Positions 98 through 57,340 of a stretch of DNA of 64,000 nt are shown here, piece by piece. The position numbers and the translations under genes are program-made. Origin of the DNA: an uncultured virus (IMG/VR IMGVR_UViG_3300035501_001058) (Duplodnaviria > Heunggongvirae > Uroviricota > Caudoviricetes); IMG/VR virus record IMGVR_UViG_3300035501_001058; one strand, 5' to 3'. How positions within the stretch are numbered: position 1 is the stretch's first letter; each line of letters begins with the position of its first letter. The notes under the pieces are model-generated. The model worked only from the letters and a program-made list of their open reading frames with translations. It did not search any database and had not been told where the DNA came from.

Positions 98-866
98 AGA
101 TAGAGAACTTTTAAAAGAAGAAAATAGATTACTAGCATACACAGAACAAAGAACATTTACTTTAGCTAGTTCCAAAGAAGAATTAGAAAATGTATGTGGT
201 GATGATAGTGCATTTCTTGATGAATTGCTTGTTACAGCAGCATCACCAAGAGTCTACAATTCTATTTTTGGAAATGCATACGATTCTCATTTTATTCTTG
301 AGGCTATGGGATTAGAAAAGAATACCAAAGAGAATATTATAGTTGTAGATTTAAGTAATAGCCTTGATTATGTTTTACATAGATTAACTGGTTGCTCAGT
401 TGAGAGTGTACATAAACTAAATAATTATGAAGCTGTAAGTAGACATATTATGAATTATAATTTTTCTGCTTTAAGTAATGTAAAAATAAAAGATTTGGCG
501 GCGTTAGATTTAAATATAGCTGAATGGATTGCTAGTTTATTAATCAGTGTTTCTAATAATCAGCTAAGTGATACTGAGATTTTGAATATGCTTATAACTA
601 AGTTTTATAGAGCAATAACTATAGAAGCACAAAAGATACGAAATTACATCATGTTCTATCTTAGGAGTACATGTAATGACACTTTTATAATAAAAAGTCG
701 TTCTTTATGTAGTATACTGGCGACTACAGATGCTGAAATAGATGATGTATGTACCTTATTTGAGTCAGGTAGAGATGATGTTGAGTATGATTTGCATATA
801 TTAAAATTTAAAAAGTATGAGTTTTACAGAGGAGGTGCTTACAATGTTCTTAACTGGAAGCATTAA
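78..866 (+). CDS. Hypothetical protein directly upstream of DNA polymerase
   Basis: 262-aa ORF, TTG start after GAGGTG; overlaps polymerase start. Confidence 0.75.
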   Translation: MRIDLFKDRELLKEENRLLAYTEQRTFTLASSKEELENVCGDDSAFLDELLVTAASPRVYNSIFGNAYDSHFILEAMGLEKNTKENIIVVDLSNSLDYVLHRLTGCSVESVHKLNNYEAVSRHIMNYNFSALSNVKIKDLAALDLNIAEWIASLLISVSNNQLSDTEILNMLITKFYRAITIEAQKIRNYIMFYLRSTCNDTFIIKSRSLCSILATTDAEIDDVCTLFESGRDDVEYDLHILKFKKYEFYRGGAYNVLNWKH

Positions 867-3800
867 GTTTGATGATCAGGAATACTTTATTGCATGGAAG
901 GATATTAAATCATCAGAGGTTCTTTGGTGTTTTTCTCCATATCACAAAGATGATAATATTGAAGTACAGATGGGTGGTGCACCTAAAAATCCTATAATTG
1001 TAGATAAATATGTTTTGAAAAATTTCTATAATGAGAACTATGTTATCGAAATAATGAAAAGATTGAAGGTCTCAGGTGAAGTAAGTGTATATGGGCAACC
1101 ACAAATAATCGAAACTTTTATGGATACATTAGCTTTTGCAAGAAATTATAAATTTGCAAAAGATGACGTAAAAAGAGATTTAGTATCACAGATGTGTGGA
1201 ATGACAACGCAGGATTTTATAGGATCTGATAATCATATTTCTATGTCTTTTACTAAAGAAGATTTATTTTTCACAAGGCTGGATATTGAATATTCTGGTG
1301 TTTCTATACATATGGAAAAGGCTCCATTTTCTTTAAAGGAAAAAGTATTTACATTAGTTGATGCTGATAGGTTATACAAGAAACGTATTCTTACTAAAAC
1401 TATTAAGGATATTGACTATGCAGCGTTATGTGACAGCTTAGATATGACTTGGTATAGAGATGGTGATGTTCTGAAAAAAGATTATTGGAGTATTAAGTCT
1501 GTATTTGAGTTTGAGACTAAAATAATGACACCTATGCTAAAAAAGATTAAGGAATGCTATGATGAAGGCAAAAAGTTTTATGTCTCAGTCGATACGGAAA
1601 CAACAGGCTTGAACGTATATAACTTAGATAAAAATAATCCTGATAAAGATCATGTAGTAGCTATACCGATTACATGGACACCGGATGCAGGTTTCGTAAT
1701 ATTTACCGATATGGAGCATTTTGCTAATGTAGATAATGACTATTGCGTAAGAAGATTAGCAGAAATTTTCGAGAATTTCAAAGGTGAACGTACAATAGAG
1801 TGTTGGGAACCTTGCTCAGAAGATACAATAAAGTTACAAGAAATGAACGTATTTGATGATAAATCAGTATCAAACGTTATAAATGATAGTGATTTAAGTA
1901 AGTGCAAGAAGACTGCAATAACAATCAATAGAAATACAATAAATTTAATTGGGCATAATGTAATGTTCGATAAAAAGGCTTTTATAGACTCTAATTGCTA
2001 TTTTTATTTTGATGATGATACTATGCAAATGTCATTTAATCTAGCAAGTAAATTAGTTAAAGGTTCTAATAAATTGAAGACTTTGACACGTAAGTTATTT
2101 GGACATGAGACTCCGGAGTTAACTGATATTTTAGGAAAAGGTAACGAGGATAAGTATAGATTTTTAGCAAATGAGGAAGTTGCTAGAATTTATGGTTGTG
2201 CCGATGCTGATTATACATTACAGGTATTTTATTATCTTAGAACGTTAACTACTGATTCTATGTATGAAAAATATAAAGCATTAGATGTTCCAATGTTAAA
2301 TATATTACCTAGAAGTGAATACTACGGATTACAGATGCAGGAAGAAAAGGCACTGATGTTAGGTGATGCAGTATTTCATGATATAGAGATATTAAAACAG
2401 TTTGCATACAGGTATGTAGGTATTTTTGTAAATTATTACAGGCAGAGGGAGAAAATAGAAGCAAGAAAAGCTGCAGGTTTGTTTGATTCTGATGAAGCAT
2501 ATCAAGATGCAGTAAATAATATAAAAATTTCTGATTCTGCTATTTATGAATTTGAGTTCAAACCCAATGAGCTAAGAACAGTATTGTTTGAGATATTAAA
2601 ATATCCAATTAAAGCTTGGACAGAAGGGAAAAAGGCTTTACCTAAGCTAGATAAATATGCTATGAAAAAACTGGTTCAGGATAAAAGACCTGAAGGTTCC
2701 ACAGATTTCAACAAGCTGGAACATAATATTTATAGCTATGGACACAGTCAAGAAGAATATGATGAACTTATGGCTAAAGGAACAGAGAAGGCTAAAAAGA
2801 AAGCCGAATCCTTAATACTGATAGATGCTGATGAGTTTAATAAATGCAAATATCCTTTAGCTCTTGTATTACAGAAATATGCAGAATTAAATAAGGAATA
2901 TACAGCATACTTCAAACCAATGAAAGAAACTAATCTTGAGGGTAAGATATTTAAGTCATATTCGTTAGCTAGAATTGAAACAAGAAGAATTCAAAATGCT
3001 GCTCAAACAATGAAAGGTAATTTGAAAGACTTAGTTAAAGCATACAATGAAGATTATTACTTGCTAGACTTCGATATGTCCCAGGTAGAATATCGTATAA
3101 TGCTTAGTTTAGCAGGATACATGGCCATGGTTGATAAGATGAAAGACCCTGAAAAGGATTATCATACTGAAACAGCCAGCTTAGTTAATGGAATACCTGC
3201 TCACAAGGTAGATAAGAAAACTAGAAAAAGTGCTAAGAGTGTAAGTTTTGGCGTGCCTTATGGATTAGGTGAACGTTCATTGTGTGAGAAAATCTTTGGT
3301 GATCCAACAGAAGAACATTTATTTGCCACAAGATTACTTTTGGCTAAATGGGAAAAAGCCAACAAGCCTATAATGGAATTTCTTAACAGTGAAAGAGATA
3401 ATGCTTTGATAGCTAGAGCAATGTCTGATGATCTTCGAGATTTTATGGATGCTTGGGAAAAGAATGAAGATGGTTCATACAAATTAGACCCTTTAGGCAA
3501 GAAAATTCCTAAACCTACTGGTTTTGTTTATGATAAATATGGATTTTATCGTACTTTCGATGTATCAAATATTGATCAAAGTGAATCAGCAAAACGTAGA
3601 CGAGCTACAGGACATTACACATCAGATGAAGCTAAGATACGAAGACCAGCTGGTAATTTCCCTATTCAGTGTTTTGCAGCAGAAATGTTTAGGATAATAC
3701 TTATTAGATTCTATAATAGATGTGAAGAAGAGGGAATTAATGATAAATTAATCTGGCATATGCTAATTCATGATGAACTGTTGTGCAGTGTTCATAAGAG

Positions 3801-5034
3801 TATACATCCATTTTTTATTTACAAATTGGTAAAAGAGAGTTGCATGATTACTATGAAAGGACATACTAATTATTTTGTTGGAATAAATATTGGTAATACT
3901 TGGGGTGAGGTTAAAGATGATGCAAGAGAAGCTCCAGTTTATTTTGTAGATAGAATTGTAAAAAGATGGGATTCTGGCGAGTTTGGTAATGGACCTTTCT
4001 GGTTTGATAATCCATGGGATGATCTTATAAAAGATGAAAGAGCTAAATATGTCGATGAGCGTATCTGGGAAGTTATTCATGAAGTTCAGAAGGACATAGA
4101 TAATGCGCCAATTAATATACCTTATATTATGGAACATTTTGATAACTATACTGTACGAGCATACGTGAAAGATGGATATTCACTTAATAATAAAGTTGTT
4201 GGTGATTACTCAGGTGATGAAAAAGCTGATAGAGAGTGGGCAAGCAGATTTGAGACATGGGCTTTAGGCAGATTTCCTATTGGAAAGCCTATAATCAATT
4301 ACGATGGCAAATTAGTTGTATTAAGAAACGGAAATTATGAGGAAGGAAACGTAAGTGATCCATTAGATTTAGATACTTCATTATTCTTTGAAGATGATGA
4401 TGAAGATATCGAAGCTAATAGTTATTGGAGTTTTGATACAACCGAGTGTAATAATGCATTTGATGCAGAGATTAGTGATGATTCATCAGATGATGATGTA
4501 TTTATGTATGCATTAGATGATGAAAAACAAGGTGCTCATAATATTGCTGAGATGTTACAAGTAACACGTAAGTATAATAATTTAAGCGTAATGCTTGAGC
4601 AAGTTGTTATAACAACAAGTAAAAATCGTCAAGAAGAGATAAAACGTTATTTACAGCCTTATGTCACTTCCAGTGGTAAAAGTATAGTATTTATCTTTCG
4701 AGGTGGCGGTGCAGAAAGATGGCTTAAAGTAAATGATCAAGTAAACTGGGATAAGCTTGATGAATTCATCAAGGAAATTGATAAAATTGAGTCATTAGCA
4801 AAATCTAATAAGTCTTATAAGCCAGAATTATTTACTTTACTGAATAACAATCTTGTAATTACACTCTCAAATAAATATAAATTTGTTAACTGTGAGAATT
4901 GGTTGATGAATTTTGAAAGTCATAATGGGTATGGAGTGATACTTAAAACTCCGTTAGGCGATATACGTAAATTGCCAATAAAGATTATGCTTGATTTTAA
5001 GAAGCTGGATAATTATCTACGAAAGGAGCTTTAA
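844..5034 (+). CDS. polA: Large family-A DNA polymerase with 3'-5' exonuclease and long N/C extensions
   Basis: ExoI VDTETTGL, ExoII GHNVMFD, ExoIII YGCADAD; pol motif A DMSQVEYR, B RKSAKSVSFGVPYG, NFPIQ, C IHDEL. Start moved to ATG 844 after GGAGGTG. Confidence 0.92.
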   Translation: MFLTGSIKFDDQEYFIAWKDIKSSEVLWCFSPYHKDDNIEVQMGGAPKNPIIVDKYVLKNFYNENYVIEIMKRLKVSGEVSVYGQPQIIETFMDTLAFARNYKFAKDDVKRDLVSQMCGMTTQDFIGSDNHISMSFTKEDLFFTRLDIEYSGVSIHMEKAPFSLKEKVFTLVDADRLYKKRILTKTIKDIDYAALCDSLDMTWYRDGDVLKKDYWSIKSVFEFETKIMTPMLKKIKECYDEGKKFYVSVDTETTGLNVYNLDKNNPDKDHVVAIPITWTPDAGFVIFTDMEHFANVDNDYCVRRLAEIFENFKGERTIECWEPCSEDTIKLQEMNVFDDKSVSNVINDSDLSKCKKTAITINRNTINLIGHNVMFDKKAFIDSNCYFYFDDDTMQMSFNLASKLVKGSNKLKTLTRKLFGHETPELTDILGKGNEDKYRFLANEEVARIYGCADADYTLQVFYYLRTLTTDSMYEKYKALDVPMLNILPRSEYYGLQMQEEKALMLGDAVFHDIEILKQFAYRYVGIFVNYYRQREKIEARKAAGLFDSDEAYQDAVNNIKISDSAIYEFEFKPNELRTVLFEILKYPIKAWTEGKKALPKLDKYAMKKLVQDKRPEGSTDFNKLEHNIYSYGHSQEEYDELMAKGTEKAKKKAESLILIDADEFNKCKYPLALVLQKYAELNKEYTAYFKPMKETNLEGKIFKSYSLARIETRRIQNAAQTMKGNLKDLVKAYNEDYYLLDFDMSQVEYRIMLSLAGYMAMVDKMKDPEKDYHTETASLVNGIPAHKVDKKTRKSAKSVSFGVPYGLGERSLCEKIFGDPTEEHLFATRLLLAKWEKANKPIMEFLNSERDNALIARAMSDDLRDFMDAWEKNEDGSYKLDPLGKKIPKPTGFVYDKYGFYRTFDVSNIDQSESAKRRRATGHYTSDEAKIRRPAGNFPIQCFAAEMFRIILIRFYNRCEEEGINDKLIWHMLIHDELLCSVHKSIHPFFIYKLVKESCMITMKGHTNYFVGINIGNTWGEVKDDAREAPVYFVDRIVKRWDSGEFGNGPFWFDNPWDDLIKDERAKYVDERIWEVIHEVQKDIDNAPINIPYIMEHFDNYTVRAYVKDGYSLNNKVVGDYSGDEKADREWASRFETWALGRFPIGKPIINYDGKLVVLRNGNYEEGNVSDPLDLDTSLFFEDDDEDIEANSYWSFDTTECNNAFDAEISDDSSDDDVFMYALDDEKQGAHNIAEMLQVTRKYNNLSVMLEQVVITTSKNRQEEIKRYLQPYVTSSGKSIVFIFRGGGAERWLKVNDQVNWDKLDEFIKEIDKIESLAKSNKSYKPELFTLLNNNLVITLSNKYKFVNCENWLMNFESHNGYGVILKTPLGDIRKLPIKIMLDFKKLDNYLRKEL

Positions 5035-5721: not shown

Positions 5722-6963
5722 ATGAAATTTAATGAAATGAAAGCTAAATATGATGAGTTCAATGCCTTCTCGGATTTCTGTACAGTAGAGCATGCCAAGC
5801 AAATAGATTTAATTCCAGTTGCTTGGCATGATGTTTTTCCTAATAAATGTTCATGCGGTAGTGAAATGATAATAAATTTAGCACGTACTAAATTTACATG
5901 TTGTAATCCTAGATGCAGAATAAAGCAAGGATTTGCATTAAGTGAGTTGTTTAGCAGATTTAATATAAAGGGTATTGCAGATGCAACATGCTCTGATGTT
6001 TATGAGATGCTACAAAGAAAGAATGAGGAAAGAACATCACAAGGAGAAAAACCTTTATTTCTTTCAGATTCATACGTGGAGATACTTAACGTTGATGAAA
6101 AAGATTATCCTATTAGTTTTCAGCAGAGTGCTAAAGGTATGGAGTTTATCGATGGAATTAATTCTATGAAGAATTGCAGTTTAACTTTTTCAGAAATGGT
6201 TTCGAGATTAGGTTTGCCCGAATTTGATTCTACTGCTAAAAAACTATTTAGTGATATAAATAGCTTTGAGGAACTTATGACTACTATTAAAGCTGAGAAT
6301 GGTATCTATAATTTTTGTAGTAGAAGAGGTGTTTATGCAGTACAAAAAATGTTCTGGTTAAAAGTGTCTTTACAGGATATTGCTGTTGCCTGGTTTATCT
6401 TTGGAGAACAGTCTAGAATGCATGGTTTACAAAATCTTGATATCTGTATCACCGGTAGTGTATTTTATAATGGCTCAAAGTACACTAAAAGCGATTTTAT
6501 TAAAATTTGTAATGCACATGCCTACTCGCATAGCATGAGTGAGATACTAAAAGAGATCTTTAAAGATAATTCTATGATAGAATATGAGGATTTTATAAAG
6601 ATTTGCAAAGAACTAAAATGTGAAATAAACACACAAAAATTTGAAACTATTAATCAAAATGAATTATTTGAATTGATTGATCAGTCCGAGTTGGATTTTG
6701 CTGTTCAGTTATATGAGATTAATATGACTACAGCAAAAAAGAGTGTTCCTTATATTGTAGGGGATACACCATCTAGTAGTTCTAAGTATCTGGAAGGCCT
6801 AAGAAGAGGTGTGGAAATTGACAGTGATGGAAATTCTCACAAAGTGTTAGTGACTTCTAATGAACTAATAAGTGAGATTGATAATAAAGTAAAAATTTGG
6901 GAAGGTGGATTGATTAAACGATGCAAGAATTTGATACAGAGTTCCAAGATGACGATCTTCTAG
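5722..6963 (+). CDS. NAD-dependent DNA ligase C-terminal-like protein (Zn finger, HhH, BRCT-like); no adenylation domain
   Basis: PNKCSCGS...CCNPRC zinc finger, NIKGIADAT HhH-like, ICITGS BRCT-like start; no KxDG motif. Confidence 0.65.
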   Translation: MKFNEMKAKYDEFNAFSDFCTVEHAKQIDLIPVAWHDVFPNKCSCGSEMIINLARTKFTCCNPRCRIKQGFALSELFSRFNIKGIADATCSDVYEMLQRKNEERTSQGEKPLFLSDSYVEILNVDEKDYPISFQQSAKGMEFIDGINSMKNCSLTFSEMVSRLGLPEFDSTAKKLFSDINSFEELMTTIKAENGIYNFCSRRGVYAVQKMFWLKVSLQDIAVAWFIFGEQSRMHGLQNLDICITGSVFYNGSKYTKSDFIKICNAHAYSHSMSEILKEIFKDNSMIEYEDFIKICKELKCEINTQKFETINQNELFELIDQSELDFAVQLYEINMTTAKKSVPYIVGDTPSSSSKYLEGLRRGVEIDSDGNSHKVLVTSNELISEIDNKVKIWEGGLIKRCKNLIQSSKMTIF

Positions 6964-9900
6964 ATTTGCTTACTGAAGAAGTGACTGCCAATGATGAGCA
7001 TAAGCAAGATGATGACAATGTAGATGATTTGTTGTCATTACTAAATGATGACCTGGAAGATGCAGAAGCCGATGATTTAGCACAAGTTGAGTACAATGAT
7101 CTAAATCATCTTTCATTTAGCGAGGATTATGCAGAAAATGTTGAGGGAGTCAATATTGAATATGACGTCGAAAGTACACTCGTTGAAAGTAATTTTGATC
7201 ATAGTGCAGATGAGGATTCATTAGATTCAGTAAAAGATCAAGAAATCTTAGAATCGCTACAGAACGAGTTAGCACAAAAGGGTTACAAGTTTTTAGAATA
7301 TTATGACTATGAACAACTTGAAGCTCTTATAAGGATTGAAGAGTTTTGTGAGAATGAAGATATATTGGAGGAACAACGCAATTCTCTTATTGAAAATTTT
7401 GATAATATAAAGAATTTGATTAAGACGACCAATGCATCTTTTCTTAAACAGTTTTCTGCAAAGAGTTACAAGTGGAGAGAAATGCCTAATGTAAAAACCT
7501 CTTTACCTCAACCTTTTATAGAAATTATTTGGGATGTAATTCTAGAACTATTAAGCAAATCTGGTAATAGTAAACAGATTGAGGATACTGTAAATATTAC
7601 AAAAGTTACTGAGAGGGTACTTGATGGACCTAAAAACTATAAAGTGTATATTGAAAGCTCTGAATACTATAATTATTTGCATAGTGTTTTGCCAATAGCG
7701 ATATCTAATTTTAAGGATATGCGAATGGGTATAAGGGAGTTTGAATTACAAAGAGATAAAACTGTCTCATTTCTTTTACAGGATGAACATAATGCTATGA
7801 AAGATATGGAACAGGGAGATATTGACTTTATAAAACAGATATACAAAAGGTCAGAGTCTTATGTATACTGCTGTAATAATTGTAACACTGAGTCAGAATT
7901 AAAGAGTGCTATAGTATCGTATATTCTATATGCTTCTGAGCAGGGAACTTATAAACCTGTCTTGTTACCACGAATGATTACATGTTCATGCTGTGGAAAG
8001 AAGTACATGTTGCCTTTAACAATTTATGCAGAGATTAGAGATAATCTCGATAAGGTGTACAAGAGAGGTTCTTCAGAATTATTCAAGTACTTAAATAAAG
8101 TATCTACAGGTACTGCTCTAACTAAGATTACACCTACAGTTGAAGATATGTTGGAAAAATTTAATTTTCCAGATGTTGGTGCTAATATCGATGAAAGAAT
8201 AACGACTGAAGATACTAAGCAACCAGTAGAAATATTCTATGATGATTATGAATACTATGAGGCTATTAAAGCTTTTAATAATCGTTGTCTTTTATTTAAT
8301 ACTGATGTATCAAAACAAACTAAAAATAAAACTCGCGATTCACAAGGTGATGAATTCCTTAGTTTTGAAACTGATGATGCAATTGATGAATTAGTAGAAG
8401 CTTCAGATACTAAAGTAAATAATCTCTCCTATAAAGATTTAGTGCGCTGCATGATTGCAGAGCTATCACTAGATTATAATACAGTAAAAAATAAAGCTAT
8501 TTATTCACTGATAATGGCATTTAATGAAGTAGATTGTATTAAAAGATATTTACATTTAAGTGATTATTGGAATTGGAAAAATCAATATAATGTACTGAAA
8601 AATGTAGAGAAGTATAATGAAAATGATAAAGAAATGCTTTCCATTTGCAATGCTTTATACAGACAGTTTAATACAGAATCTGCCAAAAATTTATCAGAAT
8701 TAAAAGATTTTCTGATTAAGTATCGTGAGCAAATAAAAGAAACTATTAAAGATTTTGAAAATAAGCATGCAGAGATTTTATTACAAATTCATAATAATAA
8801 GGATTTATATGCACATACAAAGATACTGAATATAAATCAGGTAAGTTATTCTTTATTAGTTGACTATTTAGCAGATAAGACATTATACGCTATGGTAGAT
8901 GATATTACGGATAGAATGATAGTCAATAATTATGCTGAGGCTTTTTCAGATTCTCTATTTAGAGGCTCTATACTGAATAGTGGTTATCTCAGAAGGCACC
9001 TTTTAGAGATATCATCTGGTATGATATTACATAAAACAATTGAAAATTTTATGGATAATAGAGGTATCCCATTTCCTTATGACATAATGGAGAGACTATA
9101 TTATGTCTCTGGAAACCATTTAGTTGCATTACGAGATGCAGCGGATGCTTTAAAGGAATATGATTATTACAACTTTTTGAAGAATTTAAGTGAACTATCA
9201 GATTATAATACTCTGATAAATCTTGATGCTGATGATAAACTAAGAAAAGCCTCTGAATTAGCAAAAACGGAGTTTAATACTATAAAAAATAGTAACTATG
9301 TTGCATATAATCTTTGTGACTTCACAGAAGAGGAATTACAAGATAAAAGTTGTAGGAAGGAGCTAGCTAGAATAAACTTTGGTGCGTTTATACCTAAACG
9401 GTTACCTAATGAAACGTTATCTGAATACCTAAAGAGATATAGCGAGCTAAGCACTAAGGATTTATTAGGTACAGTGGAGTGTTACGACCATAGGAAAGAA
9501 TTTGATAAATTTTCAGATTATTTTGTTGTTATAGCAGCTGGTTATAATGTTTTAGATTTGGATAGTAGCAATTTTGCACTTGCTAATTTTATACGATGTT
9601 GGTTATATGTGTGCTGCGAATGTATGAGTAGATCTAATGCTTTAGGCTATTTAGGATATTCTGAGAAATATTTTAATCGTCTAAAAGCACTCGATACTAA
9701 CAATTATGATAAGGCATTTGAAGAAAGTATTTTCAGTGAAAGTGCTTCACTTTATAGGATCTGGCATGGTTACTATGTTAATCCAGTTGATGAATTTTTA
9801 ACTGTAAAATGCAATAACCCAGCTAATATTACCCTCAATGAAAAATCTAAAATAGATTCTATGTTGGTACCTAGAATTAGTGATATTATTACGGCTATTG

Positions 9901-10046
9901 AAGATGCTTCTGATAGTGAAATCTGTTCATTAAGCTCAAAACGTAATAAGTCTGATGATGTAAATAGGGCAGAAGCAGAAGAACTTGAAAATGCAGGTTC
10001 GATGCGAGAAGATATGATTAATGAGATTGAAAGTTATAAGGAGTAA
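6921..10046 (+). CDS. Large hypothetical protein with acidic N-terminus and putative zinc ribbon
   Basis: 1041 aa; D/E-rich N-terminus; CNNC and CSCC pairs. Confidence 0.8.
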   Translation: MQEFDTEFQDDDLLDLLTEEVTANDEHKQDDDNVDDLLSLLNDDLEDAEADDLAQVEYNDLNHLSFSEDYAENVEGVNIEYDVESTLVESNFDHSADEDSLDSVKDQEILESLQNELAQKGYKFLEYYDYEQLEALIRIEEFCENEDILEEQRNSLIENFDNIKNLIKTTNASFLKQFSAKSYKWREMPNVKTSLPQPFIEIIWDVILELLSKSGNSKQIEDTVNITKVTERVLDGPKNYKVYIESSEYYNYLHSVLPIAISNFKDMRMGIREFELQRDKTVSFLLQDEHNAMKDMEQGDIDFIKQIYKRSESYVYCCNNCNTESELKSAIVSYILYASEQGTYKPVLLPRMITCSCCGKKYMLPLTIYAEIRDNLDKVYKRGSSELFKYLNKVSTGTALTKITPTVEDMLEKFNFPDVGANIDERITTEDTKQPVEIFYDDYEYYEAIKAFNNRCLLFNTDVSKQTKNKTRDSQGDEFLSFETDDAIDELVEASDTKVNNLSYKDLVRCMIAELSLDYNTVKNKAIYSLIMAFNEVDCIKRYLHLSDYWNWKNQYNVLKNVEKYNENDKEMLSICNALYRQFNTESAKNLSELKDFLIKYREQIKETIKDFENKHAEILLQIHNNKDLYAHTKILNINQVSYSLLVDYLADKTLYAMVDDITDRMIVNNYAEAFSDSLFRGSILNSGYLRRHLLEISSGMILHKTIENFMDNRGIPFPYDIMERLYYVSGNHLVALRDAADALKEYDYYNFLKNLSELSDYNTLINLDADDKLRKASELAKTEFNTIKNSNYVAYNLCDFTEEELQDKSCRKELARINFGAFIPKRLPNETLSEYLKRYSELSTKDLLGTVECYDHRKEFDKFSDYFVVIAAGYNVLDLDSSNFALANFIRCWLYVCCECMSRSNALGYLGYSEKYFNRLKALDTNNYDKAFEESIFSESASLYRIWHGYYVNPVDEFLTVKCNNPANITLNEKSKIDSMLVPRISDIITAIEDASDSEICSLSSKRNKSDDVNRAEAEELENAGSMREDMINEIESYKE

Positions 10047-10048: not shown

Positions 10049-10942
10049 ATGATTTTTGTTTTACTTGAGCAAGAGAATAATGTCATAGCGCCAATGATAC
10101 CTAAACTGACAGCTTCTATTAATAAATCTTGTGTGAAATATATACAAAATAAGGTAAAAGTAGATCAGATATTGTGTTACAAGGAACTTCCATTATTTGA
10201 ACGTGGTTGGTTTCTTGTATACAGTGGGATAGATAAGTCAGTTATAAAATTTTTATGCTCATTAGATACTAGCACAGTAGTTTTAAAGCAGGTGAGTAAA
10301 TCTAAATGTGAAGCAACTATAGCTTTGCTGAAATCTCTTAAACTAGATTATAAGTTTATTGATAATTGGGAAATTAAGAAGCAAACAAAAATAGATTATA
10401 TACTGCGAGAAATTAGTGTAGATAATAAGGATGCAGAATATTTATACAATAGAACAAGAGGCTATACAAAAGCTATTGTTGAAGGGGTAAGTGCTCTAAA
10501 AACTTTAAATAATATAACACGAGAAGACATTAGAGCACTTGTACCTAAATCAGATAGATACGGTCTATTAGATTTATACAAATATCTAATTCTGTCTCCT
10601 GATTGTACAATGGGTTATTCTGATGCTGTCTTAATTATATATAGGTATCGATACGGTTTTCAGTACGTAAAAGACTTTTTATTAGGAAATCTTACAACGG
10701 CGATGGAAGTTTATGGATATATTGCTTCCGGGGAACTTACAATTACCAACTATCGTGAAGTTCATGCCAAATTAATAACCACAATAACAGAATATCAGGT
10801 TTATAAGATAATAGAGCAATATAATAGAGTTTCTTATGAATACTTATACTTTTTATATACCAGTATCTCTAAATTAAGTAAGGGAGATACTGGTATTTAT
10901 ATGTTGCTTAATATTCTTAGAGTAAGAAAGGGGAAAGATTAA
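10049..10942 (+). CDS. Clamp-loader delta (HolA)-like protein
   Basis: 297 aa, LPLF motif in N-domain, NITREDIRALV segment typical of delta; dnaX in same element. Confidence 0.5.
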   Translation: MIFVLLEQENNVIAPMIPKLTASINKSCVKYIQNKVKVDQILCYKELPLFERGWFLVYSGIDKSVIKFLCSLDTSTVVLKQVSKSKCEATIALLKSLKLDYKFIDNWEIKKQTKIDYILREISVDNKDAEYLYNRTRGYTKAIVEGVSALKTLNNITREDIRALVPKSDRYGLLDLYKYLILSPDCTMGYSDAVLIIYRYRYGFQYVKDFLLGNLTTAMEVYGYIASGELTITNYREVHAKLITTITEYQVYKIIEQYNRVSYEYLYFLYTSISKLSKGDTGIYMLLNILRVRKGKD

Positions 10943-13414: not shown

Positions 13415-13567
13415 ATGGAACTTAAAACAATAATTATAATAGCTATTATTGTACTTTTATTTATTTTTGGTGGCGGTAATATTTTCCATGATAATGGTGG
13501 AAATGGTAAAGGTGGCTCGAAAGGCGGTAATAGTGGAAATTCAGGAGGAACAGCTGATGGTAATTAA
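13415..13567 (+). CDS. Small membrane-anchored Gly-rich peptide (50 aa), absent from ORF track
   Basis: MELKTIIIIAIIVLLFIFGGGNIFHDNGGNGKGGSKGGNSGNSGGTADGN*; AGGGGG RBS upstream; fills the gap between neighbours. Confidence 0.75.
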   Translation: MELKTIIIIAIIVLLFIFGGGNIFHDNGGNGKGGSKGGNSGNSGGTADGN

Positions 13568-13793
13568 TATAGTTATACTAATTGTACTAATTGCTATTAC
13601 AGTTACTTGTGATTTTACTCCGTATACTTTAAGTGACAATGAAGTGAAGTTGCTATACAGTGACACACATACTGATGATGATTCTATTTTTGGTACAAGC
13701 ACTGTAACAGGTGACTTCGATGCAAATGAATTACAGAGTTCTTCAGCAAAAGATCAAGCAGAAGAACTCTTGAATCAAATTTATAATGGTTAG
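13557..13793 (+). CDS. Small membrane-anchored protein (78 aa)
   Basis: AGGAGG at 13543-13548 before ATG 13557; N-terminal hydrophobic helix. Confidence 0.7.
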   Translation: MVINIVILIVLIAITVTCDFTPYTLSDNEVKLLYSDTHTDDDSIFGTSTVTGDFDANELQSSSAKDQAEELLNQIYNG

Positions 13794-46129: not shown

Positions 46130-46874
46130 TGCAGGAACTATATTCGCTATTAGTCCTGATTATCTAGATGTGCTAAATAAGGAATCTGCTAAATATGATT
46201 TTGCTCTGCAAGGATACGGTTCATTTCAAAAAGCTTGCAAATGTCTTATTAAAACAAATGTAGAGGATATACTTGGTTATGTTTTCTTAAGTTATGAACT
46301 CCCTAAAGATTTAACTTTCTTTAGGGAGTTTTTGGATAAGTGTAATCTGTGCGGCGGAGATAAAAAGTTTCTTATTGCAACCTTAAATCAGGCAAGGATA
46401 ACTCAATTAGATTATAGTAGTTACAAGAATTTAAAGTTTGGTATAGTAAAAATTAATGAGGTTGTTACAGATGTCGTAATTAATCGCGATATTTTTGGTT
46501 CAATTTTACTAGCTAATTTTGAGCCATATGTTCTTACAGAAAAGGTAGAGCAAAAGAGTATAAATGGTAACGTACCAATATTGACATATGAACCATTACT
46601 AAGTAAAGACGTTTTAGACTGTGTTGATAAAATACAACTTCATTCTTCGCTGGAAGAGACTATTAGATATGATGAAATTTTATATAGGTTTAAGCTAGCT
46701 AAGTCCCCTTTGGCCCTTTTAAGAGAATTTTATATAAAATCATTTTATCCAATTGAGCAGGATAAATCCAGTTTGGAGTGTATTTTAAATAATTGCACTC
46801 CAAAAGAGTATGGTATTTATAAAGCGTTGATAGAAATGGTTAGTTCTGAACATGTAGTACAAGGTGGTGAATAA
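46122..46874 (+). CDS. Hypothetical protein (possible degenerate receiver-like alpha/beta domain)
   Basis: AGGAG before ATG 46122; alternating beta/alpha pattern. Confidence 0.65.
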   Translation: MNNAGTIFAISPDYLDVLNKESAKYDFALQGYGSFQKACKCLIKTNVEDILGYVFLSYELPKDLTFFREFLDKCNLCGGDKKFLIATLNQARITQLDYSSYKNLKFGIVKINEVVTDVVINRDIFGSILLANFEPYVLTEKVEQKSINGNVPILTYEPLLSKDVLDCVDKIQLHSSLEETIRYDEILYRFKLAKSPLALLREFYIKSFYPIEQDKSSLECILNNCTPKEYGIYKALIEMVSSEHVVQGGE

Positions 46875-48486
46875 TATGATTTCATTTGATACTTTCAAAG
46901 TTGCTCCTTTAGAGAAGGAAATTTTTGATTCTATTTATTATGAACAGAATAGCTTAGGTGAAGCTAATTGCTTATTTGACTTAGAATTATACAAGGTTGT
47001 AGATCGTTTCACAATAGTAGACACATTAAAGAAGGAATACCCGTTACTTTGTTCTATTGAAACTGTAAATAGGGATAATACTTTGAGAGATACTGAAGAA
47101 AGATTTGGTGTGATTATAGATAAAATAAGTAATAGAGAGCTTAATGTGATATATCCAGTACTTTCGAATAATATAAATAAGAGTTCTTTAAGTATAAAAT
47201 TAAGTCAGTACAAATTAAATTGGCTTGAAGTAACCAGACTTAACTTTTTACAATTGCAAGGTACAGATATTTCTACTTTTTATAATGAAGATTTATTGTT
47301 CAAGCGAATAGTTGTTGAAGCAATAAATTTAAAGGCAACCGATTTACATTTTTCTGTTGAGCATACTGAAAACGGGGTAGAATACCCATTGTATTATCGT
47401 AGTGGCAGTCAGCTCTTTAAATTAAGTTTATTTGAGTTAGATAAAAAATTAAATAATGCACTAATTAGCAAATTCATTGAAAGAAAAACTACTGATATTT
47501 CACTTGATATTTCTGATTCAGCCGGTGTTACAACGAGCACTTCAGCTTTGTTTAAGACAAGAGCAATAGAACTTAGAGTTTCGGCTAATAAAGTAAATGA
47601 TGGAACAAGATGTGTTATACGAATTCAGGAAAAGAAAACTACAAGTTTACATGTGGATGAATTAGGGTTTGCAGCAAAGGTTACAGACGGAATAAAAGAG
47701 TTAGCTTGCAAAAGAAATGGTATTACTTTTATAACAGGTGCTATAAGAACAGGTAAAAATACCACAGCATTTGCAATTGCAAATGAAATACATAAAGACA
47801 ACGTTAGTCTAATAAGTTATGATTCACCTATAGAGGTTTTAATGCCTTTTCCACAGGTAGACTACAGAGAAAGCCCTGAGCGCTTGCTTAATTGCGTAAG
47901 ACTTGCGAAAAAACAAGATATCGATATTGCATTTTTGAATGAGATACCTTCAAAAGATGTAGCTTTTGCTGTTAAAGATCTTGTAAATAGTTCCATAGGT
48001 GTAGTGACTACATTACATTTAAATAGATTATGGGATTTACCATATAGATTATTTGAATACTATGGTGATTCTTACAAAGATGTTATAGCACAGATTAATG
48101 GTGTGGTAAATCAGAAAATGTTTAGTGTTCCATGCCCACATTGTTTGAAAACAATGAGAGCAAATGATGTAGAAAATAGTACTATTCGTAAGTTACTTGA
48201 AGCCAATAATGTTCAAACTGTTTATGTAAATGATGGCTGTGTTAATTGCTATAATATTTATACAGGTACGTATGGTACAGTTATTGGAAAAAATCAGCCT
48301 TATGCAGAATTTCTTATATTTGATGAAGAGATTCGTTCCAGCCTTTTACGGTTTGATAGTACATGGGAAATGGCAGAATACTTAAAGGGTCAGCTATTGA
48401 GCAGAAAGCAGAATCTAGAAGTGTTTATGATTGAAGCAATTAAGCAAGGAAGATTATCATATGAGGCTTTACAATACATAATTTAG
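46864..48486 (+). CDS. PilB/GspE-like secretion/pilus assembly ATPase (divergent)
   Basis: ATDLHF, ELRVS, CVIRI, ELGF, ITGAIRTGKNTT, DSPIE, NEI, TTLH, CPHC...GCVNC; start may be ATG 46876. Confidence 0.85.
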   Translation: MVNNMISFDTFKVAPLEKEIFDSIYYEQNSLGEANCLFDLELYKVVDRFTIVDTLKKEYPLLCSIETVNRDNTLRDTEERFGVIIDKISNRELNVIYPVLSNNINKSSLSIKLSQYKLNWLEVTRLNFLQLQGTDISTFYNEDLLFKRIVVEAINLKATDLHFSVEHTENGVEYPLYYRSGSQLFKLSLFELDKKLNNALISKFIERKTTDISLDISDSAGVTTSTSALFKTRAIELRVSANKVNDGTRCVIRIQEKKTTSLHVDELGFAAKVTDGIKELACKRNGITFITGAIRTGKNTTAFAIANEIHKDNVSLISYDSPIEVLMPFPQVDYRESPERLLNCVRLAKKQDIDIAFLNEIPSKDVAFAVKDLVNSSIGVVTTLHLNRLWDLPYRLFEYYGDSYKDVIAQINGVVNQKMFSVPCPHCLKTMRANDVENSTIRKLLEANNVQTVYVNDGCVNCYNIYTGTYGTVIGKNQPYAEFLIFDEEIRSSLLRFDSTWEMAEYLKGQLLSRKQNLEVFMIEAIKQGRLSYEALQYII

Positions 48487-50667: not shown

Positions 50668-51999
50668 ATGCGTATAGGAGGTTTTTATGGTTTTACTGTA
50701 CCTATGCTAATACCTGTTTATGACGAGCAGATGCAAAGAATACTTAAAACTTTTAACGGTAAACTAAACACATATGCAACATTAGATCTTAGGAAGGAGT
50801 TATGGCACTTCAGGCGTGCACTAACAATGTTACCAAGAGAATTATCTTCTGAAGATAATTCATTAAATGAGTTTTTAGACAGTGCTACTGTAATAGCTGG
50901 TAAAATTGTAGGAAAATATATGGAGCAACCTGACTCAGATGAGATAGAGCATCAAATTATGCAGGCATTATGTGATGCTTGTGGTAAAAGATTATATGAA
51001 CAAATGATACGAGGAAAGTTCTATGATGTAAGAGATTTAGAGGATTCATCATCATTTATGCCAAAGTTATTTGAGCTAGTGAAAACAGCTATGATTGGTA
51101 AGACTTTTTCCTTAACTAATGTAAATGTTTTATACAGGGCTTTTTTGAAGCTGTTGAGTGCAGATAATAGTGTAGGTAATTATGATGTAGTTAAAAGAAA
51201 CATTAGAATGTTTTGTAATCTAAGAGAGTATACACCAAATCAAATATTTATGGATGGGGAACTTATTACTTTAACAGAGCAGGAAATAAAGGTTATTGAT
51301 TATTATAGAAGTAATATTAATGTCATTGATAAAATGGCAAAATGTGTAGATATTTCAGGTTATGCAGATGAAAAGATTTTTGGAGTATCATTTATTGATT
51401 TTCTTAATAGAAAACCTACAAGTCTGTATTATATGGTTTTACAGCAATTTGATCATTTAAAAAACTCTGATATCAAGTTGTTCCCTAATGTTCTTGATAA
51501 AGTTAAGACTGAGTTTGGGACATGTAAGAATATGATAGATTCTTATTTAGCATCAAATCAGGCAGAAAATAGTATGGTTAGTAGAGATGAATTGATAAAT
51601 GTCTACTCTGATTTAGATGAAGATCTGGTTACATTTTTGTTAGAGTCATATGATATTGCTAATGTTAATGAAATAAGTACTATCGATTTGGATAATCTAG
51701 TAGTGCTATATAATGCGGCAAGATTTCTATCATTGGATAACTTAAACAGTATTTGGGAAACCGAATTATCTGAGGAAGATTTTAAAGTAATGGCATCTAA
51801 ATTCGATAAATTACATTTGGGTGGAATGACATTATTGACGAACAAGTTATTTAAAGAGTCTTTAAATGAAATTATTTTTGTAAGTAATTTAAAGGTTTCA
51901 CGTTCTGAAGAGTATGTTAGTGAATTAAAGCAAATTTGCAAAGATGTAGATGCACTGCTAAGTACATTTAAGCCAATTGGAGGTGAACTCTATGTATGA
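50668..51999 (+). CDS. Hypothetical mainly helical protein
   Basis: 443 aa, AAGGAGG RBS. Confidence 0.8.
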   Translation: MRIGGFYGFTVPMLIPVYDEQMQRILKTFNGKLNTYATLDLRKELWHFRRALTMLPRELSSEDNSLNEFLDSATVIAGKIVGKYMEQPDSDEIEHQIMQALCDACGKRLYEQMIRGKFYDVRDLEDSSSFMPKLFELVKTAMIGKTFSLTNVNVLYRAFLKLLSADNSVGNYDVVKRNIRMFCNLREYTPNQIFMDGELITLTEQEIKVIDYYRSNINVIDKMAKCVDISGYADEKIFGVSFIDFLNRKPTSLYYMVLQQFDHLKNSDIKLFPNVLDKVKTEFGTCKNMIDSYLASNQAENSMVSRDELINVYSDLDEDLVTFLLESYDIANVNEISTIDLDNLVVLYNAARFLSLDNLNSIWETELSEEDFKVMASKFDKLHLGGMTLLTNKLFKESLNEIIFVSNLKVSRSEEYVSELKQICKDVDALLSTFKPIGGELYV

Positions 52000-53020
52000 T
52001 TTACATATTCTTGATGTATCTGCCTTATTGCATTTTGGTATGAATTCAGAGTTTTATAAAGATAGAGTTAGTTATACATATAATGTTGGTGGAATACATA
52101 AAGTTATGCGACACATTATGACTGCTTTTTTTAATAATGATGAAGTTGTACTAGCTTTTGATTCTAGAAACAATTTCAGAAAACAACTTATGCCTAGCTA
52201 TAAGGCAGGAAGAGTATCAAATAAGTATGTGATTTCACAAAATGAATTGTTACTTGAGGAATTACCACGAATTGGTTTTCATTGTTATCAATTCGATGGT
52301 TATGAAGGTGATGACATTATTAATTGGGCTGTAAATGACTTACACTCTTCTGGATATGGCAAAATACTTATTATTGGTAACGATAATGACTTAGCCCATA
52401 ATGTCAGGAATGATGTTGTATTTCACAGTATTAATGATAATGTGAATAGCGTTACAGAAAATAATTTTGCATTTGCACTTAGCCGAAATGAATCCGTACC
52501 ATTTAATTTCATCAGTGTAAAAAAAGTGTTAACTGGCTGTAAATCAGATAAAGTTGCACCATTTATATCGGAAAAGGGTATTACTGGTACAGAATTATTT
52601 GATGCATATTTAAAGGCTTTAGAGAGTGCTAATGTGCCTTTTGTATATAATAATACAACTAGTTCTAAGTTATTTATGATGTTTATGAAAGCTTGCTCTG
52701 ATTTGACTGACAAAGATTTACAGGAGCTAGAATTAAGATGTAAAATTATTTTTCCTGCTCAGAAACCATCAGATGTTTCCATAGTAGCTGACAGATATAG
52801 AAAGTTAGATAGAGATTTATTAATAGATTTTTTGTCTTTTGTAAATGATTATGATTCATTAAAAAGGATTCCTGCATCTAAGCATGCTTTACGAGAAAAT
52901 CAGAAAAAGGAGCTATCTGATAGAAATAAGGCACTTACTTCTGGAACATTTGCAGTAGATCGTAATTTCCCAGTAAATGAAAGCTATGAGGATTCTGTAT
53001 TGACATTAAAGGAGTTTTGA
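51992..53020 (+). CDS. 5'-3' exonuclease/flap endonuclease (PolI N-domain / T4 RNase H-like)
   Basis: ILD, AFDS, FRKQLMPSYKAGR, EGDDII, DNDL, GCKSD. Confidence 0.9.
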   Translation: MYDLHILDVSALLHFGMNSEFYKDRVSYTYNVGGIHKVMRHIMTAFFNNDEVVLAFDSRNNFRKQLMPSYKAGRVSNKYVISQNELLLEELPRIGFHCYQFDGYEGDDIINWAVNDLHSSGYGKILIIGNDNDLAHNVRNDVVFHSINDNVNSVTENNFAFALSRNESVPFNFISVKKVLTGCKSDKVAPFISEKGITGTELFDAYLKALESANVPFVYNNTTSSKLFMMFMKACSDLTDKDLQELELRCKIIFPAQKPSDVSIVADRYRKLDRDLLIDFLSFVNDYDSLKRIPASKHALRENQKKELSDRNKALTSGTFAVDRNFPVNESYEDSVLTLKEF

Positions 53021-53021
53021 T

Positions 53022-53618
53022 ATGGAGCAAAAGAGATTAATTGTTACATATGAACGTGTTGATCATTTACTTGCTATAGCAAGTGCTAAATTGTCTGAAC
53101 AGCTTGATATTAATGGAGAGGAATATTTATATGTTGTACCTTTTTCTGATTATATTAAGAGTCAGATACATTTAAATGTTACTAATAGGCTTTACAATAG
53201 AGATAGTAGATTGTACAAAGCTGCTTATGATTATCTAATTGGAGAAAGCACAAATGCTGAAAGTTTAAATCCTATTCTTGAATTTTTTTATTCAGATATG
53301 AAGGATTTTTTATTGCATAATAAGTACAATATTAGGCTAGAATTAGATATTAATGTTGAGGTACCAGATACAAAAAAGGTATCATATAATTATGGAGATA
53401 TTAGAACTGAACTATTATGCACTGCAAATGAAAATTTCAGTGATTTTAATGATGCTAGATTATGGTTAAAGAAACATCATTATGCTGAAAATGTTATGCA
53501 GTACGTAAATAGTAATACAGAGTTATTTAATAAAATTGATTCTTATACAGCTATCGCAATTTTATCTGATAACTTAGGTAAGAAAAATATTAAATGGGAG
53601 GTTCCAAATGAGAATTGA
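53022..53618 (+). CDS. Hypothetical protein
   Basis: 198 aa, AAGGAG RBS. Confidence 0.75.
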   Translation: MEQKRLIVTYERVDHLLAIASAKLSEQLDINGEEYLYVVPFSDYIKSQIHLNVTNRLYNRDSRLYKAAYDYLIGESTNAESLNPILEFFYSDMKDFLLHNKYNIRLELDINVEVPDTKKVSYNYGDIRTELLCTANENFSDFNDARLWLKKHHYAENVMQYVNSNTELFNKIDSYTAIAILSDNLGKKNIKWEVPNEN

Positions 53619-54207
53619 AATTGAAAAAGGTTATGGAAAGATAGTTGCTAATTTTTTGAGACAACTGCTTATAACAAAAGTTCCATGCTGGCGACCAATT
53701 GCTTTTGCTGTAGGTAGTGATACCACAATAGTATCAGTAGGAGATTCAGTATTAGAGGATTCCACTGAAATAGTAAGTAACTTAGTAAAATATCATTATG
53801 AAATTGATTCAAATGAAGATTTCTATGTATTGAAACTAAATGTAAAAGATTTGAATATAGATGATTTAAATAGAGATGCTGTTCATGTACTTGATAGTGA
53901 TGGACAGCATATTTTTCATTCTATGACAGCAGAATTGCCAGTAGTTATATATTTCGCAAAAGCAAAAGGTTCTTCTTTATTAAATCAGAATCAAACAAGG
54001 TTAAGACAGAATGGTATTGATAATGATAGGGTTGTTGTTTTTAATGCAAGATTTACAAACTTAGATGCTGTGCAAGTTACAGTGGAAGAATCGTCAGATA
54101 TAAATGATATTATTACTTTAGAGATAGAGTCACACTGCGAAATTAATGAAGAAGAGCTACTGCATATTTGTTGTAGTGATATTGTTGATAAGTTTTCTAA
54201 ATTATAA
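53608..54207 (+). CDS. RNA polymerase alpha subunit N-terminal-domain homolog (no CTD)
   Basis: EKGYGKIVANFLRQLL ~ ERGYGxTLGNxLRRxLL; VLEDSTEIVSNL ~ VxEDVxEIILNL; FTNLDAVQVTVE ~ FxPVxxVxYxVE; DIITLEIES. Confidence 0.8.
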   Translation: MRIEIEKGYGKIVANFLRQLLITKVPCWRPIAFAVGSDTTIVSVGDSVLEDSTEIVSNLVKYHYEIDSNEDFYVLKLNVKDLNIDDLNRDAVHVLDSDGQHIFHSMTAELPVVIYFAKAKGSSLLNQNQTRLRQNGIDNDRVVVFNARFTNLDAVQVTVEESSDINDIITLEIESHCEINEEELLHICCSDIVDKFSKL

Positions 54208-56070: not shown

Positions 56071-56090
56071 AAAATTAAGATGAATTTACA

Positions 56091-56116: not shown

Positions 56117-56137
56117 ATATTTAGGGAGGTACATAAA

Positions 56138-57340
56138 ATGCGGCTATATAATTTTGATGAGGTTGTAGGTAATAGCAATGTTGTTGCTATTATTCGTCAA
56201 TCTTTAGCTAATGACTCTTTTCCCCAAATAGCTATCTTTAGTGGAGTTTACGGCACAGGTAAAAGTACATGCGCTGAAATTGTCAGCTTAGCCTTAACAT
56301 GTAAAAATAGTAAAAGTGGTTTACCATGTTTAGAGTGTGAAAATTGTAAATCAACAATAAAAGCTTTACAAACAACAGCAGAGAATACACGTGTTATAAA
56401 AATAAATGTAGCACACAAGAACACAAAAGAAGATTTAGATAAAATGATACGAGATATTTTTGTTCTTAAATCTTCTAGTAGTAGAGTCGTATACATAATA
56501 GAGGAAGCACACTCATTAAGTAAAGCGCAGCAAACAGCATTCTTGGAAGAATTAGATAAAATACAAAAAGGAGTGTATGTAATTTTCTGCACAACAAAGA
56601 TAACTGATTTACTCCCAGAATTACGTAGTAGAGCAATAAATTTTGCTTTTACTCGAATAAATGATAATGAAGCTGCAATACTTTTATCAAACTTGGAAAG
56701 GAAATATTCTTTTTATTTAGATAATGCTTCAAAACAGATAATAATTAATTATGCAAAGGGAATACCTCGACAATTAACCAATCTTTATGAATTTGTAAAA
56801 AATGGTGGCTATCAATCTGAGACATTAGCGTCTTTTTTGGGTGTTATAAATGAGAATGAATATATTACATTATTTGAAATAATGTCATCTAGGGATATGT
56901 TCATGTATACTAATTCTCTTGATCAATTATTAAAATCATACAGTATCGATGTTTTTCTTGAACAGATGAAAGAATTTATGCTAAAGGTCGTTTTTCTCAT
57001 TGAAGGTAGTATTAAATCAGGTTTCTCTAATGATGATATACAGAGAATCAGAAGAGTTTTTAACGGAATAGATGTTTTAAAGGTGGCTAATGTTATCAGC
57101 AATATAAATTATAATGCAACTGAAGCAGACTTTAAGTTTTCTATGTTAAAAATTAGACAGATTATGTGTAATAAGACAATGAATGATATTGTAAAAGATA
57201 GTGCCACTGAAGCTGTTGCACAGGTACGACAAGCAAAAACACTTGATAAAGCAATAACAGATACGAAGAGAGAAGAAAGCAATAAAAATTCTTTTTCACC
57301 ACTTAATCTTCAGTTTTTGAATCAATTCGGAGGTGATTGA
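56138..57340 (+). CDS. dnaX: DNA polymerase III gamma/tau-like clamp-loader ATPase
   Basis: FDEVVG, GVYGTGKST, C..PCLECENC zinc module, IIEEAH, LRSR, GIPR. Confidence 0.9.
   Translation: MRLYNFDEVVGNSNVVAIIRQSLANDSFPQIAIFSGVYGTGKSTCAEIVSLALTCKNSKSGLPCLECENCKSTIKALQTTAENTRVIKINVAHKNTKEDLDKMIRDIFVLKSSSSRVVYIIEEAHSLSKAQQTAFLEELDKIQKGVYVIFCTTKITDLLPELRSRAINFAFTRINDNEAAILLSNLERKYSFYLDNASKQIIINYAKGIPRQLTNLYEFVKNGGYQSETLASFLGVINENEYITLFEIMSSRDMFMYTNSLDQLLKSYSIDVFLEQMKEFMLKVVFLIEGSIKSGFSNDDIQRIRRVFNGIDVLKVANVISNINYNATEADFKFSMLKIRQIMCNKTMNDIVKDSATEAVAQVRQAKTLDKAITDTKREESNKNSFSPLNLQFLNQFGGD

Follow-up and report, generated by a model that had tools for sequence, protein, structure and literature searches.

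The 64,000-nucleotide stretch of IMG/VR record IMGVR_UViG_3300035501_001058 (hereafter the window, meaning that whole stretch) encodes a large family A DNA polymerase, PolA1, together with a bacterial-type sliding clamp, the clamp-loader ATPase DnaX, and a delta-like loader subunit, and no C- or B-family polymerase was detectable either in the window or in the element of a collinear relative. DnaX, HolA, and the beta clamp normally serve family C polymerases. With only modest confidence, we favor the view that PolA1 replicates the element on the element's own clamp; we infer its role as replicase, its need for the clamp, and a docking peptide. The initial annotation of this DNA had gone further, presenting the PolA enzymes as clamp-dependent replicases that replaced Pol III alpha. 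That proposal is supported in part: the parts and folds on which it drew are present and no C-family polymerase was found in the window or on the relative's contig, and a contact of either PolA with the clamp is hypothetical. The genes that it had named (DnaX, the HolA-like and clamp-sized open reading frames [ORFs], the epsilon-like exonuclease, DnaG, and the PolAs) were all recovered on the + strand where it had placed them.

The window has a G+C content of 31%, and its GC skew is positive throughout (0.16-0.28). The 52 ORFs of at least 100 amino acids that were taken as genes all lie on the + strand, and no tRNA genes were found in the 64 kb. Most products lack a family match in Pfam, PHROG, or NCBIfam, and those with a match are mainly DNA-metabolism proteins. 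The genes on which the proposed replicase depends are as follows.

817-5034, + strand: PolA1, predicted proofreading family A DNA polymerase, 1,405 amino acids as an ORF (PF00476, phrog_17)
10049-10942, + strand: predicted clamp-loader delta (HolA-like) subunit, 297 amino acids (AlphaFold2 fold, Foldseek)
38530-39537, + strand: predicted three-domain beta-type sliding clamp, 335 amino acids (AlphaFold2 fold, Foldseek, hhalign repeats)
56138-57340, + strand: DnaX clamp-loader ATPase of gamma length, 400 amino acids (TIGR02397, PF13177)

Judged by its modeled fold, the product of 38530-39537 is a three-domain bacterial beta clamp belonging to a family that has no Pfam model. It matched no clamp model in Pfam (PF00712, PF02767, or PF02768) and nothing in PHROG or NCBIfam, and the sequence alone gave no match in the PDB. 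Only three relatives (46-54% identity) beyond the sequence itself were returned from a word-indexed database, and an exhaustive profile search returned 140 representative clusters at E <= 1e-3. PF00712 was matched weakly by 3 of 131 relatives (best E value, 0.0016), and the best PDB match of the clamp profile was a beta clamp (7evp; E = 0.041). In hhalign comparisons the internal repeats were evident between domains 1 and 3 (P = 3.5e-5) and between domains 2 and 3 (P = 9.8e-5), with a P value of only 0.018 for domains 1 and 2. Domain 3 also matched domains 1 and 2 of DnaN (P = 4e-5 and 2e-5), and control comparisons against HolA gave P values of 0.26-0.59.

The AlphaFold2 model of the clamp, built from 131 sequences, had a predicted local distance difference test (pLDDT) score of 96.4 and a predicted template modeling score of 0.90. 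Its best Foldseek match was DnaN of Eubacterium rectale (3t0p_A; E = 5.6e-16; template modeling [TM] scores, 0.72/0.67), aligned over the full length, and all 37 matches listed were beta clamps, so that the clamp fold to be checked for this product, according to the initial annotation, is indeed predicted. Identity to solved DnaN proteins is just 7-12%. The clamp is acidic (isoelectric point, 5.25), as are cellular ring clamps; 28 DnaN proteins of cellular Bacillota have values of 4.59-6.73. As indirect evidence, this fits a ring that requires a loader, by the criterion given in the cited section of PMC3201878.

PolA1 is, on its sequence motifs, a catalytically intact family A polymerase. It matched PF00476 (DNA_pol_A) with 109.5 bits (cut-off, 34.3) and phrog_17 with an E value of 3.8e-39. 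The protein consists of an N-terminal domain with no function assigned, a 3'-5' exonuclease domain, the polymerase domain, an acidic linker, and a C-terminal domain of ~190 amino acids. The polymerase domain carries a conserved insert of ~55 amino acids, which was placed in the thumb by eye from the sequence. The catalytic motifs (Exo I-III; motif A, DFDMSQVEYR; motif B, RKSAKSVSFGVPYG; motif C, HDE) are intact and invariant across 16 relatives. Identity across the relatives, which lie on contigs of up to 316 kb, is 44-66%. Translation probably begins with the ATG at 844, the position chosen in the initial annotation, because 12 of 15 relatives begin at the corresponding Met.

DnaX matched TIGR02397 over 4-335 with an E value of 2.2e-39 (135.7 bits; equivalog cut-off, 250) and PF13177 with an E value of 3.5e-18. 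Its translation displays a Walker A motif, a Cys4 module, a DExx box (IIEEAH), and an SRA arginine finger, and thus, with the collar domain, the features of an AAA+ clamp-loader ATPase. Because the protein ends at residue 400, it is of gamma length: ~65 residues follow the N-terminal model, and it lacks tau domains IV-V, through which DnaB and Pol III alpha are bound. The lack of the domains that couple DnaX to Pol III alpha supports a clamp that works with PolA1.

The product of 10049-10942 has, in its model, a clamp-loader fold without ATPase motifs that is closest to delta. Its sequence gave little signal: TIGR01128 was matched by one of six family members (E = 2e-4; 20.8 bits against a cut-off of 80), hhalign gave a P value of 0.0065, and neither Pfam (PF06144) nor a PDB sequence search returned a match. 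The AlphaFold2 model (pLDDT, 83.9) found delta of Bacillus subtilis as its best Foldseek match (3zh9; E = 8.9e-7), as expected if the HolA-like label of the initial annotation is right. The six next-ranked rows were Escherichia coli clamp-loader and delta:beta-clamp chains, down to E = 4e-5. There were 38 matches at E <= 1e-3, and all 36 of those listed were clamp-loader entries; the TM scores of 0.34-0.49 are low, as expected of a flexible three-domain chain. Among structure neighbors in the ESM Atlas, 7 of 10 rows were named delta clusters (TM scores, 0.47-0.67). A PPLFE motif (residues 47-51), which may be equivalent to the clamp-opening element L73/F74 of E. coli delta, follows a helix of domain I (38-45) and precedes a strand (55-58) and is kept in six of seven sequences.

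Other polymerases were sought in the window and in a collinear relative, a 250,423-bp contig (C37) of a Wujia sp. (Lachnospiraceae) metagenome-assembled genome. Orthologues of 50 of the 52 window ORFs occur on C37 in the same order, with 26-76% identity. Host chromosome makes up the first ~63 kb of C37, with genes for trigger factor, ClpX, Rho, RF1, and the butyrate pathway. A 24-bp direct repeat corresponding to the 3' end of tRNA-Met is present at 65,793-65,816 and 246,153-246,176 (L009 and L018) and brackets an element of ~180.4 kb, with host genes beyond both ends and a tyrosine integrase gene at one end of the element (65,884-67,143).

When the 52 window ORFs were scanned with Pfam at E <= 0.01, no C- or B-family polymerase was found among them. 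DNA_pol_A was the sole polymerase family matched (for PolA2, a second PolA-like protein, below the threshold), in agreement with the initial annotation, which had seen family A polymerases only. Six-frame searches of the Wujia assembly located PF07733 (DnaE/PolC) only on contigs C58 and C16, PF00136 (PolB) only on contig C8, and PF00476 (PolA) on C64, which is host, and on the element. The relative's element had no match to PF07733 or PF00136 at E <= 0.01 in six frames, and Pfam scans of 185 additional C37 ORFs revealed no further polymerase. Because these six-frame and Pfam scans were blank, the relative's element has, as far as sequence models reach, no detectable non-A polymerase. The search for dnaE or polC beyond the window that the initial annotation had called for was therefore negative on C37, a result that pertains to the relative and not to the window's own replicon.

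Several observations weigh against a PolA1 that replicates on the element's clamp. The evidence for the lack of another polymerase covers 64 kb of the window's own replicon and C37 of the relative, and the window contains seven ORFs of 501-1,491 amino acids to which no function was assigned. Large conserved ORFs that lie close to or among the replication genes include the following.

6921-10046, + strand: 1,041 amino acids, just upstream of the delta gene; no family match
23225-25777, + strand: 850 amino acids, among replication genes; no family, PDB sequence, or trustworthy ESM Atlas match
57815-62290, + strand: 1,491 amino acids, just downstream of dnaX; no family match

A non-A polymerase hidden among these large ORFs, with 57815-62290 and 6921-10046 as candidates, would reduce the PolAs to accessory enzymes, and we regard this as very doubtful. 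The candidates do sit inside runs of replication genes without a family match, and divergent or split minimal forms of Pol III alpha or PolB are reported from jumbo phages in the cited parts of PMC7824862 and PMC3201878. Against it, the 1,491-amino-acid protein had zero PDB sequence matches at E <= 10, and the 1,041-amino-acid protein had chance-level matches only at that threshold (E = 0.14 and 2). The ESM Atlas neighbors of the 1,491-amino-acid protein were surface-protein-like, with a best score of 0.82, which is below the trust level. The blank six-frame search of the relative's element for PF07733 and PF00136 also argues against a hidden polymerase. As a separate observation, the C-terminal FISYAIVFWQPF tail of the 1,491-amino-acid protein is identical in the window and in the relative's element.

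No delta-prime was detected with Pfam or NCBIfam, and phmmer found no paralogue of DnaX or delta. The loader may consist of DnaX and delta only, or a further subunit may be hidden among the unassigned ORFs, those at 10942 and 39541 being candidates for delta-prime.

The host chromosome of the relative encodes PolC (1,504-amino-acid frame) and DnaE (1,169 amino acids). Because the relative resides inside a Bacillota chromosome with both, host polymerases would be on hand, and the element's clamp and loader could recruit them for bulk synthesis, with the PolAs engaged in initiation, gap filling, or repair. This arrangement, which we hold to be improbable, would also accord with the resemblance of PolA2 to the exonuclease-less PolA primases of Bacillota mobile elements (PMC10061031, in the section cited). 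It fits less well with a clamp that is only 7-12% identical to solved DnaN proteins and with a DnaX that lacks the tau polymerase-binding domains. PolA1 is large, proofreading, and conserved (44-66% identity) and thus fits the part of main replicase.

PolA2 is the weaker of the two polymerase candidates.

27984-29759, + strand: PolA2, putative divergent, exonuclease-less family-A-like polymerase, 591 amino acids (weak PF00476)

Its match to PF00476 (E = 7e-5; profile positions 51-349) reached 22.4 bits, below the cut-off of 34.3, and NF011539 was matched with an E value of 2.2e-4. It contains strings, identical in the relative, that resemble motifs A, B, and C and have Pol I-like spacing. An hhalign comparison with the PolA1 family gave no support for a relationship (P = 0.52), and no PDB sequence match was obtained. 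Being below the Pfam threshold, PolA2 could be a primase-type enzyme, which counts against treating it as a replicase; by its sequence, it could be a second polymerase, a repair enzyme, or a primase like TV-Pol or CcPol. Exonuclease-less PolA enzymes of Bacillota mobile elements act as primases, according to the part of Rice 2023 cited here (PMC10061031). Like the CcPol-MP and PolA-SSB primases described there, PolA2 is truncated, lacks the exonuclease, and is carried by a Bacillota mobile element. It differs in that no OB-fold partner was identified; the next ORF (29770-29988) encodes 72 amino acids.

Sites for the clamp were sought in both PolAs. When PolA1 and PolA2 were scanned with regular expressions, neither showed a canonical motif for clamp binding (QLxLF), and the thumb insert of PolA1 has none either. 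Two other candidates were considered and rejected. An apparent QEVLxMF string at the N terminus of PolA1 precedes the start codon at which 12 of 15 relatives begin. A C-terminal LxKE[FL] tail, which the flap endonuclease has in common with PolA1 both in the window and on C37, is lost in more distant PolA1 relatives. The remaining candidate lies in the acidic linker.

4369-4398, + strand: candidate docking peptide LDTSLFFEDD, PolA1 residues 1185-1194 (conserved [L/M/F]-F)

This Leu/Phe peptide sits in the acidic linker, rich in indels, that joins the polymerase domain to the C-terminal domain, and its [L/M/F]-F pair is kept in 14 of 16 PolA1 family members while the flanks vary. Downstream is a YWSFD string (residues 1203-1207; nucleotides 4423-4437) in which Y1203, W1204, F1206, and D1207 are invariant. 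The peptide is missing in 2 of 16 relatives, and it could bind another partner. When the element's other proteins were scanned with a position-specific scoring matrix of the peptide, no conserved second copy appeared: two weak matches scored at least 9, with 1.45 expected by chance. We treat it as a possible clamp-binding peptide, proposed from its conservation.

Family A replicases of the T7, T5, and SPO1 type work without a clamp, and PolA1 might do likewise, with processivity conferred by its thumb insert or extra domains. The clamp and loader would then serve PolA2, the flap endonuclease, the ligase, repair, or late transcription. T7 polymerase carries a thioredoxin-binding loop in its thumb, and the conserved insert of PolA1, in the position assigned by eye, would lie where that loop is; this and the absence of a canonical clamp motif both favor a clamp-free PolA1. 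The T4 clamp gp45 is a precedent for activation of late transcription, and the element has RNA polymerase parts of its own (one resembling RpoA in the window; a beta-beta' fusion and proteins resembling sigma and GreA in the relative). Further support comes from phage Mu, which uses the host clamp in late transcription (PMC12867686, as cited), and from the clamp-free PolA solutions noted in PMC3201878, again in the section cited. The opposing points are that viral clamps and loaders as a rule accompany viral polymerases (PMC4889955, in the part cited), that no transcription factor with a clamp-binding tail was identified, and that the conserved Leu/Phe peptide would be left unexplained. We consider a clamp-free PolA1 unlikely, although it is the likeliest of the alternatives.

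For a PolA1 that does use the clamp, the following scheme can be proposed. DnaX, of gamma length and in several copies, would act with the delta "wrench" to open the element's beta-type clamp and load it at primers, which would come from a split DnaG primase acting together with a DnaB-like helicase. PolA1, which brings a proofreading domain of its own, would be the replicase riding on this clamp and may dock on it through the conserved Leu/Phe peptide of the acidic linker. The flap endonuclease and a split NAD-dependent ligase would finish Okazaki fragments. The window genes predicted to act in these and related steps of replication and recombination are listed below.

5722-6963, + strand: protein resembling the C-terminal half of NAD-dependent ligase (weak; TIGR00575, E = 7.6e-5, positions 391-622)
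19936-20598, + strand: DnaQ/epsilon-like DEDDh 3'-5' exonuclease, 220 amino acids (PF00929, E = 3.7e-7; phrog_192, E = 2.5e-19)
33569-34336, + strand: DnaG-type Toprim primase core (Toprim_2, E = 6e-11; TIGR01391, E = 3.9e-15)
36009-38244, + strand: SbcC-like ATPase and SbcD-like phosphoesterase pair (weak; AAA_23, E = 5.6e-4; Metallophos, E = 8.1e-7)
41911-45862, + strand: UvrD-type helicase and RecJ-like exonuclease (PF00580, E = 8.9e-37; phrog_2484, E = 6e-43)
51977-53020, + strand: 5'-3' flap endonuclease, a free-standing nuclease of the Pol I N-terminal type (PF02739, E = 6.7e-17)

All three DEDDh motifs are visible in the translation of the epsilon-like exonuclease. The primase core lacks the zinc finger, since TIGR01391 was matched at model positions 196-346 only. 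The primase appears to be split: in the relative, a Zn_ribbon_DnaG (CHC2) protein is encoded tens of kilobases from the core (L010:13456-14187). The relative's DnaB-like helicase (L011:454-2067), like the zinc-ribbon protein, lies outside the region that matches the window. The NAD-dependent ligase likewise seems to be split, with the C-terminal half adjoining PolA1 and the adenylation half distant in the relative (L016:394-1629; PF01653 and phrog_3869), also outside the window-matching region. Between PolA2 and the primase core are a DUF285/BspA-type leucine-rich-repeat protein (29999-30742) and a protein with DUF2958 and DUF5688 (30789-31988), families that are common on Bacillota mobile elements.

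The window is best explained as the replication and recombination block of an integrative mobile element of ~180-190 kb from gut bacteria of the Lachnospiraceae. In a database record, the contig that carries the window's delta protein is up to 191 kb long. Searches of GenBank phages with the window DNA or the clamp protein found no close relative of the lineage, and the best PolA1 identities there were only 21-27% over at most 35% of its length. PLSDB plasmids yielded no relative, and IMG/VR yielded none with the window clamp, the window DnaX, or a 14-sequence clamp alignment; a PolA1 alignment retrieved only four distant PolAs from IMG/VR. At the sensitivity of these sequence searches, the lineage is new, being absent from GenBank phages, PLSDB, and IMG/VR.

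Gene content beyond replication includes the following window features.

13449-13793, + strand: holin-like protein (weak match)
15074-15844, + strand: M23 peptidase
25782-27905, + strand: FtsK/SpoIIIE-like ATPase
46864-48486, + strand: T2SSE-type ATPase
53608-54207, + strand: protein resembling the RpoA N-terminal domain (NCBIfam, E = 9e-10)

Encoded in the relative are an RNA polymerase beta-beta' fusion of 2,877 amino acids (L015:10050-18680); a protein with alpha-CTD and sigma region 4, a sigma-like protein, and a GreA-like protein (L010:18565-19149, L010:282-914, and L011:6532-7002, respectively); and TubZ, Hsp70, a sortase, a signal peptidase, and SpaA-type surface proteins. No capsid, portal, terminase, tail, relaxase, or VirB4 family was recognized in the window or in C37 from 66 to 246 kb, as covered by Pfam (52 window and 185 C37 ORFs) and PHROGs (52 and 105 ORFs). 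Nearly all genes lie on one strand in both the window and the relative, and the GC skew of C37 is -0.15 to -0.32, host flank included; this strong, uniform skew points to an integrated element co-oriented with the host flank.

The element could be a temperate giant phage of very divergent type or a giant element that is not viral. It is possible, if rather unlikely, that it represents a new kind of giant integrative element (~180 kb, at tRNA-Met) with complete bacterial-type machinery for information processing, which would combine its own RNA polymerase and a PolA clamp replisome with a Leu/Phe tether not described before, and without recognizable capsid, portal, terminase, relaxase, or VirB4 genes. 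The host element is more unusual than its replisome, and, as a ~180-kb, tRNA-integrated element with its own RNA polymerase and no recognizable virion genes, it may outrank the replisome in wider interest.

The pairing of a PolA with its own clamp and loader is already known, as prediction and as annotation, because it was proposed for Ma-LMM01 and RSL1 and is annotated in Streptococcus virus MS1. The premise that such a pairing lacks precedent is thus mistaken. Kazlauskas and Venclovas (2011; PMC3201878), in the section cited, described PolA with polIII-beta and polIII-gamma homologues in Ma-LMM01, a Microcystis phage, and RSL1, a Ralstonia phage, proposed that the clamp serves PolA in both, and cited stimulation of E. 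coli Pol I by beta. The cited parts of their 2016 survey (PMC4889955) and of an overview of jumbo phages (PMC7824862) give the same general picture. A limited literature search found no biochemical reconstitution of such a replicase from a phage or mobile element.

Like Ma-LMM01, RSL1, and MS1, the element has PolA as its sole polymerase type together with its own polIII-beta and polIII-gamma homologues. As described in the same section of PMC3201878, the genomes of Ma-LMM01 and RSL1 exceed 150 kb and encode PolA as sole polymerase, a distant homologue of the beta clamp, and a loader ATPase of the gamma type whose motifs are intact, all of which resemble the present case. By comparison with that description, the element adds the delta wrench and the epsilon-like exonuclease, its clamp family gives no Pfam signal, its integration site is a tRNA gene of a Bacillota host, and it lacks recognizable virion genes.

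MS1 (KY629621.2; 56 kb) is a cultured phage whose record annotates DnaN, DnaX, delta-prime, and a further loader subunit, along with DnaB, DnaG, SSB, and DNA polymerase I as the only polymerase. It differs from the window in that its parts are recognizable by Pfam and that it has capsid, portal, and terminase genes. The DnaX proteins of MS1 and the window share 26% identity, and the window lineage differs further in its 1,405-amino-acid PolA with extra domains and in that no delta-prime was detected.

The three-domain beta clamp, DnaX, delta, DEDDh exonuclease, and DnaG/DnaB-type primosome are shared with the bacterial Pol III holoenzyme. In contrast to that enzyme, the element has no detected C-family alpha, tau domains, or delta-prime, and its family A polymerase has a built-in exonuclease. 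Bacterial clamp and loader parts do not go with C-family polymerases alone. The element extends the short list of predicted PolA-clamp replicases by a very divergent lineage; what is new here is this lineage, the clamp family without a Pfam model, the delta wrench, and the 1,405-amino-acid PolA1 with its extra domains. The conserved Leu/Phe peptide of PolA1 offers a concrete target for mutation.

In T4, gp43, gp45, and gp44/62 form a replicase in which a short hydrophobic peptide holds the viral polymerase on a ring that depends on a loader; the polymerase is of the B family and the clamp is a two-domain, PCNA-like trimer. As in T4, the loader of the element may comprise several copies of one ATPase and one odd subunit, whereas its polymerase is of family A and its clamp is of the three-domain beta type.

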